Below, piece by piece: positions 3-15,893 of a stretch of 15,893 bases of DNA. The stretch spans positions 1-15,893 of the forward strand of contig JAEOTE010000158.1 of NCBI GenBank assembly GCA_016839945.1, written 5' to 3'. The stretch is from Candidatus Heimdallarchaeota archaeon (lineage in GTDB: Archaea; Asgardarchaeota; Heimdallarchaeia; Heimdallarchaeales; Heimdallarchaeaceae). The notes under the pieces are model-generated. The model had not been told where the DNA came from and searched no databases. It saw nothing but the letters and a program-made list of their open reading frames with translations. The position numbers and the translations under genes are program-made. Position 1 is the first letter of the stretch, and each line of letters opens with the position of its first letter.

Positions 3-1406
3 AGCAAAATCAATGAATATTTTTTTGGAGATATAGCTTGTGGTTCTGGAAACCTAATAATTTCTTTATTGAACAAAATCAAGAAATTTGTTGAAACTCT
101 AGAAGTTAATAGACTTATAACTAATTTTTTTTCAAACAACGTTTATTGTTACGATATTGATCCAATAGCTTTATGGCTTTGCAAGGCTAGAATGCTGTTT
201 TTCTTTTCGTATAATTTTCCTAAACTTCCATTGCCTGATTTATCATCAAATTTGATACTAGGAAACTCCCTTTCTAACTCCACAATTAAGAAAAACCTAC
301 GTTTTGATTTTCTTATATTAAATCCTCCTTACATGTGTTATGGACTAAGAAATTCTCAAGAATATACAAAAGAATACAAAAGATATTTACGAAAAAGATT
401 CTTCTCAGCAGAATACAAACTGAGTTTATACCCAATATTCATTGAAAGATGTTTGGAGCTATTGAAGAATGATGGGATACTAGGAATTATCACTCCTGAT
501 TCATATTTACTTGGACGTTATTACTCCAAAATTCGATCATTTATCCTTAACAATTCACAGATATTAGATATCTCTTTACTTGGTTTTGAACCATTTAAAG
601 GAGTTACACTAGGACGACCCACAATAACGTTTCTTAAGAAAAATACACAAGGACATAGGAACAATAAATTCTTAGCTTGTTGGATTGAATCGTATCCCTC
701 AATGATTAAGGAAGAGTGGATTGAACAAACAAATGCTATATCAAATATTCTTAATGACACATTAAATCGTTTTTATGTCTTCTTTAGTCAAGAAGATGAA
801 AAGTATGTTAAAAAATGGGTAGAAGAATCATCCCATTCCATTCAGGATATTGCTACAATACACACTGGTGTGCGTAGCCGCGTTGGAAAAAAAAGAATTA
901 TCTCAGAATCCAAAAAAGGAACAACATGGAGAAGAGGAATTATTTCTGGAAGTCAAGTCAAACCCTTTTGTTTGGATTACAAAAATCATTGGTTGAATAT
1001 TGATCCTTCTATCTTATGGTCAGGAGGATTTAGTGATGAGATTGTTGAAAATCCTAAGATTATTTTAAGGCAAACAGGATATCACATAAGCTGTTGTGTC
1101 GATACTGAAGGTTATTACCATTTAAACAATTGCCACGCTTTATCTCCAAAGAATAAAGATCTTAATCTTTATGCTTTAGCAGTGATTCTTAACTCTCCTG
1201 AATTCAACAGGTTATATAATATCTTAAGTATAGAGAAAGGTCGATCATTAGCTCAGATTGATATTGAGTTTCTACTTAGGTTTCCATTAATCAAGGTTGA
1301 TAAGAAGACAGAAGAAAAATTAGAGGAATTTTATTTTGAACAAAATAAAAGAATAACCTCTGGAGTGGAACCTCATGAATACTCTATTAATGATTTTCTC
1401 AAATAA
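3..1406 (+). CDS. N6-adenine DNA methyltransferase, gamma class (Eco57I/TaqI-like with C-terminal TaqI_C-like target recognition domain); 5'-truncated by the window edge
   Basis: The frame is open from nt 3 (SKINEYFFGDIACGSGNLII...), upstream of the ORF-track start at 69, and contains SAM-binding motif I (DIACGSG). It is followed by YDID, ILGNSL, catalytic motif IV NPPY, LYPIFIE...LLKNDGILGIITPDSYL and a C-terminal KIILRQT...LNS region typical of TaqI_C. Confidence 0.9.
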   Translation, partial: SKINEYFFGDIACGSGNLIISLLNKIKKFVETLEVNRLITNFFSNNVYCYDIDPIALWLCKARMLFFFSYNFPKLPLPDLSSNLILGNSLSNSTIKKNLRFDFLILNPPYMCYGLRNSQEYTKEYKRYLRKRFFSAEYKLSLYPIFIERCLELLKNDGILGIITPDSYLLGRYYSKIRSFILNNSQILDISLLGFEPFKGVTLGRPTITFLKKNTQGHRNNKFLACWIESYPSMIKEEWIEQTNAISNILNDTLNRFYVFFSQEDEKYVKKWVEESSHSIQDIATIHTGVRSRVGKKRIISESKKGTTWRRGIISGSQVKPFCLDYKNHWLNIDPSILWSGGFSDEIVENPKIILRQTGYHISCCVDTEGYYHLNNCHALSPKNKDLNLYALAVILNSPEFNRLYNILSIEKGRSLAQIDIEFLLRFPLIKVDKKTEEKLEEFYFEQNKRITSGVEPHEYSINDFLK

Positions 1407-6027: not shown

Positions 6028-7479
6028 TTATTTGATTCCTTCTATTATTTTCTTGATATTTTCAGAAATGTTTTTTACAGAATTTCTTTTAAAGAATAAA
6101 TTTGCATCGAATTCTTTGCTTTTTGTCTTGCTTAGAGAACTAATGAAATCTTTTACAGAACTTATTTTAGTTGCATTTTCTGTTTCTATTAGATATTGCA
6201 TATATTCATATCCAGGAGCACTAAAAATCATTGTTTTTAGTCCATAGCTTAATCCTTCGTAAATAGCTGTAGAATTCACTCCAATTTGAATCGTTGATTC
6301 ACTAAATAATTCATGTATATTTTTTCCTGTGTGATCCACTATTTTCAATGTGCTTTTATCAAGCTTAGGATATATCTCTTTCCAATTTGAATACTCTCCT
6401 GGATGTAGTTTGTAAATAATCTCATAATCGAGATTTTTTTCCTTACTTAATGCGGCTGCAAATTTTGAAAGTTCATGTCCTACAAATGGTTGAGAAAGGA
6501 TAAGAATTTGTTTTCTTTTCTTTTTGTTTTCATATTCTTTTTGTAGAATTTCAAGCTCTGTATGTCCAACACTGAGTATATTTTTCTTATCTATAGGATA
6601 TGTAACAGAATTTTTCCAATAATCTCCAAACGTGAAAAGATAATCAGGAAAGGTAATTTTTCGTGCTTTTTTTCCTTCAAAAGAATATCCTGGATGAAAG
6701 CGTGTGATCACACCATGTTGTAATTCTATTGTTGGTATGTTTTGTTCTCTGCAAGTTTCTATAAATTCCTCCTTACCATAACTGCAAACCAATAATACTA
6801 TTTTTGGCTTAATTCTTCTTAATATACTGATATAGTAAGGTTTGATTCTTTTCCTAATAGTTAGAATATCAGTTACTAGTTTTCTGATGTTTATCCTTAC
6901 TTTGAATAATAGTGATATTTCTTCAGTAATTTTATCTAATAGAACTTTTTCCTCAGAAGAAAGTTTAATCTTGCCGATACCCCATATTCTTTTCATAAGG
7001 ACTAATAAATCAATATATGCAAAGTGTAGAAGATTTCTTGTTTTTGCTGGTTTGAGGTATTGAAATCCAAATGGTCCTTCTATTGATACAGAGGAATATT
7101 CTAATTCTTCTATAAAATAATCTGTAAATACATCCCACCATTTTCCATCAGATAATTTTTTTCTTCTTGAACTGCTTAATATTAATATATCACTATTCTT
7201 AGAGAGAAGCGGATTCTTTTTTAATTGGAAAATAGATTTGAAGAGATAATCTGCTTTTAATACATAATTTCTAATTTTTCTCTTTGGGAATTGATGTGAT
7301 ATTATTTCTTCCTTATCTTCTTGCATCAGTTTAGTTGTAAATATATTCTTGAAAACATGAAATCTAATTCTCTCCCAGAACAAAACTTCATCAACTTTTA
7401 AATCAAAAAGCGATAATCTTTCTTCAAATTGAGTATATTTCTCAAAAGCTTCTTTTATAGAAATATCTCCTTTACTCAT
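6028..7479 (-). CDS. Surface-carbohydrate biosynthesis protein, GT-B fold, TagF-like / CMP- or CDP-donor transferase-like
   Basis: Motifs TIELQHG, PDYLFTFG, IIYKLHPGE and GVNSTAIYEG, i.e. the HG, HP and ST motifs of the glycerophosphotransferase/sialyltransferase/capsule-synthesis-like group. Start is either ATG 7479 or TTG 7488. It lies next to nucleotide-sugar genes. Confidence 0.6.
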   Translation of the reverse strand: MSKGDISIKEAFEKYTQFEERLSLFDLKVDEVLFWERIRFHVFKNIFTTKLMQEDKEEIISHQFPKRKIRNYVLKADYLFKSIFQLKKNPLLSKNSDILILSSSRRKKLSDGKWWDVFTDYFIEELEYSSVSIEGPFGFQYLKPAKTRNLLHFAYIDLLVLMKRIWGIGKIKLSSEEKVLLDKITEEISLLFKVRINIRKLVTDILTIRKRIKPYYISILRRIKPKIVLLVCSYGKEEFIETCREQNIPTIELQHGVITRFHPGYSFEGKKARKITFPDYLFTFGDYWKNSVTYPIDKKNILSVGHTELEILQKEYENKKKRKQILILSQPFVGHELSKFAAALSKEKNLDYEIIYKLHPGEYSNWKEIYPKLDKSTLKIVDHTGKNIHELFSESTIQIGVNSTAIYEGLSYGLKTMIFSAPGYEYMQYLIETENATKISSVKDFISSLSKTKSKEFDANLFFKRNSVKNISENIKKIIEGIK

Positions 7480-7610
7480 ACTATTCAACTACCTTGTTCG
7501 TTGTTTCAATTTAAGTCCATGTAATTTATGGAATAGATGTTTATAAATTTAGTTTCCTTTATAGTAATAAATCTCATAGAGATAAGATAGATAGAGTATA
7601 AGTAAATAAA

Positions 7611-12354: not shown

Positions 12355-13608
12355 CTATTTCTTCTTTATTTCAGTTCCAGGAAATATGAAAAGTACTGCT
12401 AGTGTAATAAGAATCGTGTAAAATATCACAACATAGCTCCATGCTAGAATTGAGTAAACGGGAAATCTAAATATTCCATTAACAAGGTAGTTTGCAACTA
12501 ATCCATAGAACGACCCAATTATGAATATTGTAATGCTTATCCATCTAATCAAACCTTTTTCAAAAAAAGTAACAAAAATAAAAGGGAAAATTAACACGAT
12601 ATATGATAATTGGAATTTTTGATACAATACTAAATATGTTATCAGCAAAACAGCTGTTTGGTGATATATCCATTTTTCTCTTCTAATGAATAAGACTAAA
12701 CCTATTAAACATACCATTGTTGCAGTTAAAATCTGAAATAAAATGGTTTGTTGCTCCAAATCAATTGTGAAATAGCTCTGTATTATTGTTAAAATTCCCT
12801 GATTTCCTGGAGCTTGTATTGGATCTTTTAGAAATAAGAAAAATGTATCAGGAGCAACCAGGTAAAACGGTAAAATAGAGGATATGACAATTATAAAAAA
12901 TATCAAGGTTTGGATTATTCTTTCTTTCCAATTCTTACTATATATCCAAATTATGGGTGCTATAAAAATCGGAAAATATTTTAAACCAACACCTAATCCA
13001 ATAAAAAATGTACCCAATGTTTTATTTCCTCTTTCATATAGATAGATAGGTAAAAGAATTAATAACGGTAAAATACATTCATCTGATCCCCAAAAAGTAA
13101 CTAAATTCAAGAAAAAAGGATTTATGCTGTAAATTAATGCAATGGGGAACGCATATTTGTTCTTCCTTTTTAATTCCAGTCTATACAGAAGCACAGCTGA
13201 GAGGATTATTGCAAGCACAAAGAATATTCTAAATACATAAGATGATAACATCATACTACTTGAATTCCCAAAATTTTCATATTTCACAAAAGAACTTGAA
13301 AAATCGTTTGCTCCAATCATGGATATAAAAATTAATGGACTCCAAAGATAAGGACTCAAAGGTGCAGCATCTGTAAAGATATCCTTGAAAGGAATTAAAC
13401 CAAATAAAATTCCTTTACCTCTGTTGTAAAGAACAACTTGATCTGCGATAATAATCCCAAAATCAGGATTGATAAAATTAACATAGACGAAATGGACTAT
13501 TAGAGCTATAAGATAGACTATTACCGGAATCAAAATCAACCAAATTTCTTTTCTTACAAGAAACACTTTTTTCTTATCTTTTAGCTCTGAAGATTTTCCT
13601 ATTGTCAT
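12355..13608 (-). CDS. Polytopic GT-C-fold glycosyltransferase (GT87/DUF2029/PIG-M-like)
   Basis: About 10-11 TM segments. First external loop AD...Y...G.IPFKD.....PL, then INPF...WGSDE and G.G.GLKYFPI, a pattern typical of lipid-P-sugar-dependent transferases. The start at ATG 13608 avoids overlap with the divergent gene. Confidence 0.7.
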   Translation of the reverse strand: MTIGKSSELKDKKKVFLVRKEIWLILIPVIVYLIALIVHFVYVNFINPDFGIIIADQVVLYNRGKGILFGLIPFKDIFTDAAPLSPYLWSPLIFISMIGANDFSSSFVKYENFGNSSSMMLSSYVFRIFFVLAIILSAVLLYRLELKRKNKYAFPIALIYSINPFFLNLVTFWGSDECILPLLILLPIYLYERGNKTLGTFFIGLGVGLKYFPIFIAPIIWIYSKNWKERIIQTLIFFIIVISSILPFYLVAPDTFFLFLKDPIQAPGNQGILTIIQSYFTIDLEQQTILFQILTATMVCLIGLVLFIRREKWIYHQTAVLLITYLVLYQKFQLSYIVLIFPFIFVTFFEKGLIRWISITIFIIGSFYGLVANYLVNGIFRFPVYSILAWSYVVIFYTILITLAVLFIFPGTEIKKK

Positions 13609-13675
13609 TTTGCATCTTTTTTCGGTTTTAAGGGAAAAACTCAAATGCTCATATTTCTATTCTTTTCTGCTAGAA

Positions 13676-15637
13676 ATGAGCTCTGAAACTGAATCCTTTA
13701 GTATACGTTCCTCTTTCCCAAAATGGTTCCCACTTATATCAACATTACTGTTAGCAGGTGTAACCTATGGTGTTCAAAGAACAGCTTTATCCTTATATGC
13801 AGAAAATCTTGCTAGCTATAGTTTGTTTCAATCTGGTAATAGTCTTACAGATTTCCTTATCTTTCTACAAATAGCTTCAACCATAATTGCTTACGGTCTT
13901 TTTAAAGGCATTAGTGGTTTCTTTAGTGCAAGCATAAGCAAAAGATACAAAAGAAAAAATACCATGAGAATTGGATTAACACTTCTTGTTGTTGGATCTA
14001 TTTCATTAGCTTTTGGTAAATGGTTATGGGCATTAATATTGGGGAATATATTTATTGGATCAGGTCTTGGTTTCTTCTTTACATCCTCAATGTCTGCTTT
14101 AACTGAAATAGCAGGAGCTGAGGGTAGTGCTTTCAGTGTAGGAAGCATGGAATTTTCTGTCTATTTAGGTTCAAGTGTTGGAGCGTTCTTTGCAGGTCTT
14201 ATAGGAGAAAACCAAAATTTCTCAACAAGCTTTATCTTTGCACTCATTGTAGCTGGAGTAGCAGTTTTGATGGGTTATTTATTACTAAGAAAAGTTGAAA
14301 CAGCTGAATTAATAAAAGGAACAAAAGAAGAAATTCTTCTTGATTCTACAAGAGTGGAAACGAGATGGAGTTTCAGAAATATCTTTCGAACACCAACACT
14401 TATACTCTCTTACTTCGCAGGTCATTTCTCAAGAATAATGGATAGTCTTATCGTATTAATACTCCCTATTATGCTTAGTTCAGTATATGGTTTTAATACT
14501 ACAAGAGTAGGACTTGTAACATCTGGGTTCACATTAGCGTGGGCAATATCAATGCCGATAATGGGAAAACTAAGTGATAGATTTGGAAGGAAAGAAGCAA
14601 TATTTGTAGGACTTGTAATTGAGGGTGTTAGCTTGATTTTACTAACTTTTGTAGAAACCTTCGCCCTTGTTTTCACTTTAGCTATTTTAGCAGGAATTGG
14701 AACATCTGCTTATTATCCAAGTCTCCCTTCAATCACTAGAGATGTTGTACCAATTGTAAAAAGAGAAAAAAGTTTAGGAATTTATAGAGCATCACTTGAT
14801 TCGGGATATTTTACAGGTCCTTTAATTGCTATAGGTTTAGTATATGCAGCTTCAAACCTAACTTTATGGGGATCTTCATCCCAAGCTCAACTGGGAAATA
14901 TGTTGAAGTTCCCATTCCTTATAATTGGAGGGATATTGTGCTTATTATCAATTCTCTTCATCTTTTTAGCTATGGAGACTCGACCTGGTTGGATTCAAGC
15001 TGCTCAATCCATTAAACATGCTAAGAAAGTAAGAGAAGTTTTTCTCAAACTTGAGAAAGCTTATTCAGCTTTCTTGAAAGGAGACAAAATGGAAAGATGT
15101 ACAGATCTAATGTTAGAAGCAAAGCAAATGGAGAGAGAAGCTGATTCCTTAGTTTTTGAAGTGACACAAGTATTATATTCAGGAGTAAGACCTGCTCCAG
15201 ATGACTATCACTTTAACAAAATTACAACTATACTTGATTCATCTATTGGTCACTGTTTACGATCTCTTCGCAAACTTTTCTTAGTTCCAAGAGACAAATT
15301 ACCAGATAATTTCATTGAATATCTCAAGAAAGAGTGTAAGCTATTAGTTAAATTAATCACAAAAGCTGTTGAAGTTCTAGAAGTTGTGTGCATTCAACCT
15401 TTGGCATCACACCCAGTCTTTGAAGAAGTGCATAAACTAGAAAATGCTTTAGATACTAACAGTCATGAAGGATTAGCGAATATCATAAGAGATCCAGGAA
15501 AATTAAGCTCTGTTGAAACACTTTTTCTAATACAGATTATTGAAGAATTAGAAATTTCAGCAAATACAATTGAGGATGCTGTAGACGTGATGAAAATACT
15601 AGGGCTTAAACATCAAGTTAGTCCTATAATCATCTAA
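13676..15637 (+). CDS. MFS transporter fused to a C-terminal DUF47/PhoU-like (phosphate transport regulator) domain
   Basis: About 12 TM segments with motif A GKLSDRFGRK (first-half copy degenerate, SKRYKRK) and the end motif MET. Then about 210 soluble helical residues with MEREAD...LD, VHKLENALD and EELE.SAN.IEDAVD. Single open frame. Start ATG 13676 is preferred over TTG 13610. Confidence 0.85.
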   Translation: MSSETESFSIRSSFPKWFPLISTLLLAGVTYGVQRTALSLYAENLASYSLFQSGNSLTDFLIFLQIASTIIAYGLFKGISGFFSASISKRYKRKNTMRIGLTLLVVGSISLAFGKWLWALILGNIFIGSGLGFFFTSSMSALTEIAGAEGSAFSVGSMEFSVYLGSSVGAFFAGLIGENQNFSTSFIFALIVAGVAVLMGYLLLRKVETAELIKGTKEEILLDSTRVETRWSFRNIFRTPTLILSYFAGHFSRIMDSLIVLILPIMLSSVYGFNTTRVGLVTSGFTLAWAISMPIMGKLSDRFGRKEAIFVGLVIEGVSLILLTFVETFALVFTLAILAGIGTSAYYPSLPSITRDVVPIVKREKSLGIYRASLDSGYFTGPLIAIGLVYAASNLTLWGSSSQAQLGNMLKFPFLIIGGILCLLSILFIFLAMETRPGWIQAAQSIKHAKKVREVFLKLEKAYSAFLKGDKMERCTDLMLEAKQMEREADSLVFEVTQVLYSGVRPAPDDYHFNKITTILDSSIGHCLRSLRKLFLVPRDKLPDNFIEYLKKECKLLVKLITKAVEVLEVVCIQPLASHPVFEEVHKLENALDTNSHEGLANIIRDPGKLSSVETLFLIQIIEELEISANTIEDAVDVMKILGLKHQVSPIII

Positions 15638-15649
15638 TCCCGATAAACT

Positions 15650-15664
15650 AAAAAAGGTTTTTTT
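15650..15664 (+). terminator. Possible oligo-T terminator after the MFS-DUF47 gene
   Basis: A6-GG-T7 tract 12 nt after the stop codon. Confidence 0.3.
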
Positions 15665-15677
15665 GCATTGTCTTATA

Positions 15678-15893
15678 ATGAAAAAAGTTAATTTTCTTCT
15701 AATTCTCACTCTCACTTTATCGCTTCTTTCTTCTACATCATTTTACACATCTCCAAATTCCAGTTTTAAAAATCAGATATATCCAAACTCTAGTGGAATT
15801 TTGAGCACAAATCTAACTGTACATCTGAAATTTATAGGCTTTGATAGTAATTATGTTAATGAAGAAGAAATCGAAACTATGCTTCCTAATGAG
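15678..15893 (+). CDS. Secreted/surface protein, N-terminal 72 aa (runs off the window; not in the ORF track)
   Basis: Open from ATG 15678 to the window end: MKKVNFLLILTLTLSLLSSTSFYTSPNSSFKNQIYPNSSGILSTNLTVHLKFIGFDSNYVNEEEIETMLPNE. It has the basic n-region and hydrophobic h-region of a signal peptide and three N-x-S/T sequons. Confidence 0.75.
   Translation, partial: MKKVNFLLILTLTLSLLSSTSFYTSPNSSFKNQIYPNSSGILSTNLTVHLKFIGFDSNYVNEEEIETMLPNE

Follow-up and report, generated by a model that had tools for sequence, protein, structure and literature searches.

A survey of 926 bacterial genomes sorted PhoU-like accessory regulators into three clades, each linked to a single family of phosphate importer: PhoU is paired with Pst, PitR with PiT, and NptA's PhoU domain with NptA itself (PMC13170248; mBio 2026). 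PitR, which consists of a single PF01865 (DUF47) domain, co-occurs with PitA in 97.8 % of genomes and is nearly always encoded adjacent to it. In Staphylococcus aureus, the phosphate response is under the control of both PitR and NptA's PhoU domain, each of which may modulate import, and the NptA domain has been shown to contribute to phosphate homeostasis; members of the PhoU family are believed to inform signalling proteins of how active the transporter is (PMC13170248). In the present study, a window of 15,893 nucleotides from a Candidatus Heimdallarchaeota archaeon (assembly GCA_016839945.1, the whole of the analysed stretch of contig JAEOTE010000158.1) was investigated, in which a gene at 13676–15637 on the forward strand (stop included) encodes a 653 aa protein joining a major facilitator superfamily (MFS) transporter to a C-terminal DUF47 domain. 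Because the survey was limited to bacteria and to single-domain PF01865 proteins, it would miss such a protein. Full-text searches of the accessible literature returned no paper describing an MFS-DUF47 fusion, consistent with the original prediction, made from this DNA alone, that no characterised example was known; its account of DUF47/PitR as a separate gene beside PiT, and of PhoU domains fused to NptA, agrees with the survey.

The fusion protein resembles the PitR/DUF47-PiT pairs in Pfam family, six-helix fold, signature residues, and link to a secondary transporter. Examples of PitR/DUF47 are S. aureus PitR, Bacillus subtilis YkaA, and Sinorhizobium meliloti OrfA, and structures are available as 3l39, 2iiu, and 2olt. 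PitR is, however, a separate protein of about 220 aa encoded beside the PiT gene, whereas here the domain is fused to the C-terminus of an MFS protein. As in NptA (PF02690 and PF01895), a PhoU-superfamily bundle is present in cis at the cytoplasmic end of a secondary transporter, and the folds of the two bundles are related (TM-score 0.77); unlike NptA, which has the Na_Pi_cotrans fold, belongs to the PF01895 clade of PhoU, and is bacterial, this protein combines MFS with DUF47 and is archaeal in every named case. The eukaryotic SPX-MFS vacuolar phosphate transporters (plant PHT5/VPT1) are alike in concept only, having a cytoplasmic helical sensor of phosphate status on an MFS carrier. In these, the sensor lies at the N-terminus and its ligands are inositol pyrophosphates. 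The fusion protein has no Pfam match to SPX, and no SPX structure is among the best 50 Foldseek matches of its C-terminal domain; the parallel with SPX-MFS had been predicted to be one of analogy and not of homology, and analogy is all that was found.

On balance, the gene is read here as encoding a genuine single-polypeptide secondary transporter with a PitR-like cytoplasmic module that would regulate it in cis, probably in connection with phosphate homeostasis. Here, a regulator of PitR type is carried in cis by another transporter superfamily, in an arrangement that is archaeal and ancient. It also breaks the pattern of one clade to one importer (PMC13170248), since the PitR-type domain is joined to an MFS protein that resembles no known phosphate transporter.

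An uninterrupted MFS-DUF47 reading frame

Translation of 13676–15637 gives 653 aa with no internal stop, confirming the single frame originally proposed. The ATG at 13676 agrees with the N-termini of all 35 aligned full-length orthologues, which align with the protein from end to end; a longer frame, from the TTG at 13610, was rejected as those N-termini do not support it. Both expected domains exceed their Pfam cut-offs. MFS_1 (PF07690) scores 144.5 bits against a cut-off of 33.4 (E 5e-42), and PhoU_div/DUF47 (PF01865) scores 47.2 bits against 24.4 (E 2.2e-12), the latter covering residues 444–642 and profile positions 12–211 of 214.

In the full-length AlphaFold2 model, built from a 35-sequence alignment (mean pLDDT 78), the N-terminus lies only nine residues ahead of the first transmembrane (TM) helix, 12 TM helices extend to residue 431, and six long helices follow at residues 439–645. 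The last TM helix ends at nucleotide 14968, close to the position of about 14980 that had been given for the end of a complete 12-TM MFS domain. The N-lobe comprises TM1–TM6 (residues 10–206; 13703–14293) and carries the invariant R35 and E159, the near-invariant K77, and a partial motif C. It is followed by a central cytoplasmic loop (residues 207–239; 14294–14392) with six K/R, where model confidence is low, and by the C-lobe of TM7–TM12 (residues 240–431; 14393–14968), which contains motif A, K/R253, D256, Y346/Y347 in TM10, R371, and D375. Between TM12 and the first DUF47 helix is the junction motif E434-T-R-P-G-W439 (14975–14992), at which the pLDDT of the full-length model falls below 50. 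The inner loops hold 11 K/R and the outer loops one; together with the position of motif A, this indicates that both termini, and hence the DUF47 domain, are cytoplasmic.

The genome from which the window comes is a fragmented metagenome-assembled genome (MAG) of 186 contigs (3.0 Mb, 88 % complete), in which two separate genes might appear fused through chimeric assembly or because a stop or frameshift had been missed. Apart from this fragmentation, no evidence supporting such an artefact was found. A search of 5.8 billion proteins identified about 40 clusters at 53–93 % identity, from Heimdallarchaeaceae or from MAGs labelled Heimdallarchaeota or 'Asgard group', and both domains are present in all of them; below these clusters, identity falls sharply, to stand-alone MFS proteins at 26 %. 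More than 60 independent assemblies, the single-contig genomes G015 and G016 among them, carry the fusion without interruption, and misassembly at the junction is therefore excluded. The E-T-R-P-G-W motif is invariant among the close family and the junction is one of its best-conserved stretches. Given this conservation across assemblies, the probability that the fusion is an artefact is negligible.

In one genome of the same family (G014) there are two tandem MFS-DUF47 copies (C25:37692-40493), with a TAA within the reported frame of each match.

The C-terminal DUF47 domain

The cytoplasmic domain (residues 439–645; 14990–15610) consists of six helices. Modelled in isolation, it has a pLDDT of 90.6 and a pTM of 0.88, and its seven best Foldseek matches in the PDB are all DUF47 structures (3l39, 2iiu, and 2olt; E 2e-5 to 4e-4), with TM-scores of 0.75–0.84. 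The DUF47 fold that had been proposed for this region is thus borne out by comparison with solved members. Classical PhoU structures are next (1t8b, 2i0m, and 1xwm; TM-score about 0.7). The family profile matches 3l39 at E 0.0017; a profile was needed to reach this structure, as single-sequence phmmer of the C-terminal domain against the PDB gave only chance matches to Elongin-B. Classical PhoU (PF01895, two repeats) does not match the fusion protein at E values up to 1, and touches only two of 31 relatives.

The three acidic motifs that had been noted in a soluble helical domain are present as described, at residues 486–490, 588–593, and 633–637. The first, E486-R-E-A-D490 (15131–15145), is in helix 2, and its E486, A489, and D490 are common to stand-alone DUF47 proteins. 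In the second, E589-N-A-L-D593 in helix 5 (15440–15454), which is preceded by L588, both acids are present in 100 % of the sampled fused and stand-alone proteins. The third, E633-D-A-V-D637 (15572–15586), is in helix 6, with E626, slightly upstream, likewise common to both sets. In all, H448, E486, A489, D490, D521, E589, D593, E626, E633, and D634 are each found in at least 80 % of both the fused and the stand-alone domains, suggesting that the presumed ligand site has been kept. Fused domains differ from the stand-alone PitR/DUF47 proteins in lying on their own branch and in having lost R510 and gained K483, G525, and K645; a few positions of the domain are thus particular to the fused state.

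Fold searches of the ESM Atlas also placed the six-helix module on PHO4, NptA, ALMT/FUSC, and MazE-PhoU proteins. Its occurrence on PHO4, NptA, and ALMT/FUSC points to a recurrent cytoplasmic add-on of anion carriers, and these models suggest that PhoU-like bundles may be a general cytoplasmic module of such carriers. More weakly than on the DUF47 and PhoU structures, the DUF47 model superposes on the helical domain that ALMT/FUSC organic-anion channels have in the cytosol (TM-scores of 0.55–0.77; PDB 7vq3 and 8zte, and the ESM Atlas), and it also matches part of a 761 aa Bacteroidota PHO4 protein family.

Distribution and evolutionary history of the fusion

Homologue searches restricted to the C-terminal domain returned just the close Heimdallarchaeaceae family, and among the matches listed for a 74-sequence DUF47 profile this was also the only source of longer proteins. 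A search of 1.84 billion representative sequences with a profile of the C-terminal domain, made without a word index, gave 83 matches at E ≤0.001. About 33 of the 83 are proteins of 590–690 aa matched at the C-terminus, with E values from 1e-106 (P0012, the family's own representative) through 1e-21 (the best distant cluster) to 7e-4. The top fused matches outrank all stand-alone DUF47 proteins (about 220 aa, from E 1e-8), and the two sets overlap lower down. All 31 of the long proteins tested contain MFS_1 and PhoU_div. The fusion is also kept in about 28 more distant clusters at 22–35 % identity, the named members of which belong to Kariarchaeaceae, Hodarchaeales, Baldrarchaeia, Promethearchaeota, Korarchaeota/Thermoproteota, Thermoprotei/Thermofilaceae, and Nitrososphaerota. 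There are no bacteria among the named members of the fused clusters, every named case being archaeal, and the ESM Atlas holds one archaeal cluster of 64 members with the same two domains.

When 400 Asgard genomes were searched with the C-terminal profile, matches inside frames of more than 600 aa were present in 24 of the 30 genomes of the same family, Heimdallarchaeaceae. Five further Asgard families have the fusion (f2, one of one genome; f3, three of three; f4, nine of 12; f6, two of two; f11, four of four). It is found in none of the 22 genomes of family f5, and the 135 genomes of f12 and f20 have matches solely to stand-alone DUF47 proteins of about 225 aa. The fusion is near-universal in Heimdallarchaeaceae and frequent in sister families, the archaea closest to eukaryotes. 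The original prediction was to be refuted if the architecture were already widespread and characterised; it is indeed widespread in Asgard and TACK archaea, and no characterised member was found.

In a tree of DUF47 domains, from 33 fused and 42 stand-alone proteins, 32 of the 33 fused domains are on one side of a branch with SH-aLRT support of 85, and two changes between the fused and stand-alone states suffice to explain the tree. There are two exceptions. P0150, a 253 aa 'stand-alone' DUF47 protein, is nested with full support in the fused clade and may represent either a fragmentary gene or a fusion that has secondarily split; P0147, a fused protein of Nitrososphaerota type, branches basally on the stand-alone side. 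Pairwise identities between the MFS halves are correlated with those between the DUF47 halves (r = 0.78 for all proteins, and 0.63 when the close Heimdallarchaeaceae set is left out). The junction is retained across the 33 fused proteins, with E/D434 and P437 in all 33 and W439 in 29. The two halves have been inherited together, apparently from one old fusion.

The membrane domain and the proposed function

Among the same 33 fused proteins, R35 (TM1), E159 (TM5), R371, and D375 (both TM11) are each conserved in 33, and K77 (TM2), K/R253, and D256 (both TM7) each in 32. Motif A is present as G297-K-L-S-D-R-F-G-R-K306 in the loop between TM8 and TM9; the copy between TM2 and TM3 is degenerate in this protein, the family consensus there being GxxSDxxGRK. 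The spacing of motif C is kept in TM5 (G165-x3-G169-x3-A-G174), with the Pro replaced by Ala or Ser in 33 of 33. These charges and the TM5 glycines are compatible with proton-coupled transport through a charged cavity, without thereby identifying its solute or direction.

By sequence, the core appears closest to DHA1-type carriers. When a profile of the 33 MFS halves was compared with the PDB, the matches included NorA (4e-20), YajR (4e-16), a putative drug transporter, SLC37A2 (2.6e-13), and PiPT (1.4e-7). Foldseek of the whole model ranks VMAT, sialin, EfpA, VGLUT2, and NorA together and does not discriminate between them (TM-score, by target, of 0.8 to VMAT and NorA). All of the curated NCBIfam models score far below their cut-offs, the best being TIGR00880, Tet(A/B/C), and PgtP; TIGR00880, a 'multidrug resistance protein' superfamily model, reaches 76 bits against a cut-off of 131. 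In sequence profile and in fold, the solved structures nearest to the membrane domain are those of DHA1 carriers such as NorA, YajR, and VMAT. YajR also has a small C-terminal cytoplasmic domain. The C-terminal domain of the fusion protein is, however, of another fold, and the core differs from DHA1 carriers in its sub-threshold family scores, in the absence of the motif C Pro, and in its set of charges (R35, K77, E159, K/R253, D256, R371, and D375).

These similarities give rise to the main alternative, in which the protein is a DHA1-like proton antiporter or exporter whose solute has nothing to do with phosphate (a metabolite, cation, or xenobiotic, for instance), and the DUF47 domain is a general metal-binding or structural regulator, or ties export to the phosphate or metal state of the cell. 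The ranking of NorA, YajR, and the putative drug transporter in the profile comparison argues for this, as do the top Foldseek matches to VMAT, NorA, EfpA, and sialin, the match of TIGR00880 to 30 of the 33 members, the motif C spacing, and the conserved acids E159, D256, and D375 embedded in the membrane. The PhoU-like fold, moreover, also serves the organic-anion carriers ALMT/FUSC. Yet the family scores are all so far below cut-off, the motif C Pro is missing from every member, and the similarity centres on the generic regions of motif A; in addition, the signature residues of DUF47 are retained, and PhoU, PitR, and NptA's PhoU domain all serve a phosphate importer (PMC13170248). Export of an unrelated solute is therefore considered somewhat unlikely, although it is the foremost competitor of the phosphate-linked transporter favoured here.

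For the phosphate-linked reading, the following model is proposed. The MFS carrier, with its 12 TM helices and both ends cytoplasmic, runs via a short conserved E-T-R-P-x-W turn into a PitR-type six-helix bundle positioned at the cytoplasmic face of the C-lobe. The bundle would act as a built-in regulatory module, in which the acidic cluster of E486/D490, D521, E589/D593, E626, and E633/D634 may read a cytoplasmic signal, either phosphate or a metal-phosphate state. It would then set the activity of the carrier in cis, and might possibly relay that state to other factors. By analogy, this would be the role that PhoU, PitR, and the NptA PhoU domain play for the three known families of phosphate importer. 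A link with phosphate is supported because every clade of the PhoU superfamily studied works with one phosphate importer family (PMC13170248), and we lean towards a signal that concerns phosphate homeostasis. That the cargo is itself phosphate, or another phosphorus oxyanion, is a more tentative suggestion, which the evidence makes possible but does not favour.

Several results weigh against a role in phosphate transport, beginning with the DHA1-like ranking of the core. A core of Pho84/PHS type was rejected, as TIGR00887 gives no match at E 0.01 and PiPT is far behind NorA (1.4e-7 vs 4e-20). A core of OPA type was also rejected, the PgtP/TIGR00881 family model reaching 56 bits against a cut-off of 407.75. 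Kinship with the OPA family through Escherichia coli GlpT fared no better, as GlpT aligns solely lobe to opposite lobe (N-lobe to C-lobe), and its arginines R45 (TM1) and R269 (TM7) cannot therefore be mapped. The originally predicted transporter of oxyanions (phosphate, sulfate, or arsenate) is accordingly not borne out by the membrane domain, and, as the core looks DHA1-like, transport might run in either direction. The gene context gives no help: at six distant loci, from Hodarchaeales, Baldrarchaeia, Thermoprotei, Nitrososphaerota, and two other distant members, the neighbours are wholly different, none that recurs is related to phosphate, and the gene looks monocistronic. The genome itself has two canonical DUF47+PiT (PHO4) operons (C97:4166-5803 and C69:31687-33312), each PHO4 gene with its own adjacent DUF47 gene, so there is no obvious need for another phosphate route. 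Finally, genomes with the fusion are not cleanly those that lack Pst: family f5 is without both and family f4 has both.

There is no PHO4 gene in the window, and elsewhere in the genome a 427 aa protein with two PhoU repeats is encoded at C21:16479-17345. In the same family, PstC is found in five of 30 genomes, compared with 24 of 30 for the fusion. The complementarity of the two is suggestive in this family but not clean, and related genomes are non-independent samples; the rarity of Pst possibly leaves room for another phosphate carrier. The protein thus bears on the phosphate economy of Asgard archaea, as Pst is rare in this family and PstC was not found in this genome, which is 88 % complete.

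A further proposal, bolder and slightly less likely than a phosphorus oxyanion cargo, is that MFS-DUF47 constitutes a fourth pairing of the PhoU superfamily with a transporter, archaeal and fused in cis, in which the DHA1-like core would be an unrecognised prokaryotic phosphate carrier, whether importer or exporter, or would at least be phosphate-gated, which would give it a function parallel to that of SPX-MFS transporters in eukaryotes. If the carrier does move phosphate, it would represent a new transporter class and a one-protein model for control by PhoU-type bundles, a question still open for PhoU itself. If it does not, PhoU-type bundles would regulate more than phosphate import. In either case, the protein is attractive for structural work, as regulator and transporter are fixed at 1:1 and joined by a short conserved link.

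The MFS domain might instead have ceased to transport, acting as a transceptor that signals solute occupancy through DUF47 to cytoplasmic partners. PhoU-family proteins are, as noted, thought to pass on transporter activity in this way (PMC13170248), and a monocistronic gene with no fixed partner would be compatible with it. However, motif A, the intramembrane charges, and all 12 TM helices are conserved over long evolutionary distances, and no conserved signalling neighbour was found, making this the most improbable of the functional explanations considered.

Gene neighbourhood

Within Heimdallarchaeaceae, gene order around the fusion is conserved. Upstream are genes for Sat-CysC, TauE, a 486 aa protein, a UDP-sugar dehydrogenase, a GT4 glycosyltransferase, a Methyltransf_10 protein, and a GT87-like protein; the MFS-DUF47 gene is divergent from the last of these, and is followed by a gene for a secreted protein of about 629 aa and by three TPR protein genes on the opposite strand. 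In the window, the divergent neighbour is a GT87-like (GT-C) membrane glycosyltransferase gene at 12355–13644 on the reverse strand, which is in this position in this family only. Downstream, at 15663–15893 on the forward strand, is the 5′ end of a co-directional gene, truncated where the contig stops, whose product has a signal peptide.

This context raises the possibility that the transporter belongs to the adjoining locus for surface glycans and 3′-phosphoadenosine-5′-phosphosulfate (PAPS), either importing sulfate for PAPS synthesis or carrying lipid-linked or nucleotide-activated glycan precursors. Throughout Heimdallarchaeaceae, the fusion gene and the GT87-like gene are divergent, and the former lies 8–10 kb from the Sat-CysC, CysQ, TauE, UDP-sugar dehydrogenase, and GT4 genes. 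This synteny is, however, confined to one family, at 63–69 % identity, and can be plain inherited gene order; the same neighbours are absent from all six of the distant loci, and the locus already has a permease in TauE. As their conservation is limited to Heimdallarchaeaceae, the glycan and PAPS genes are not read as functional partners, inference of a substrate from operon context was rejected, and a role in this locus is improbable, though marginally less so than a transceptor.

The 486 aa protein, encoded in the window at 6028–7488 on the reverse strand, has no Pfam family and is syntenic between TauE and the UDP-sugar dehydrogenase in Heimdallarchaeaceae; one orthologue has a mere hint of Glyco_transf_4 (E 0.12). 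At its start (3–1406, forward strand), the contig begins within a gene for an Eco57I-type N6-adenine DNA methylase with a TaqI-like specificity domain. A similar methylase gene adjoins the fusion gene of a distant relative (L018:8007-9680), which is probably coincidence.

Orthologues of the downstream gene, of about 629 aa, are 3′ of MFS-DUF47 in every Heimdallarchaeaceae locus examined, and in that family only. These orthologues (for example L009:10006-11895) have an HELGH motif at residue 467 and no Pfam family above threshold, and possibly represent a new family of secreted zinc metallopeptidases. Beyond it, three consecutive tetratricopeptide repeat (TPR) proteins of about 670–690 aa are encoded on the opposite strand (L009:11920-17956) and are conserved downstream in L010 and L012 also. 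One of the TPR proteins has a weak match (E 5e-5, below the cut-off) to the first longin domain of FUZ/MON1/HPS1, a eukaryote-type trafficking domain that would here be encoded in an Asgard genome.

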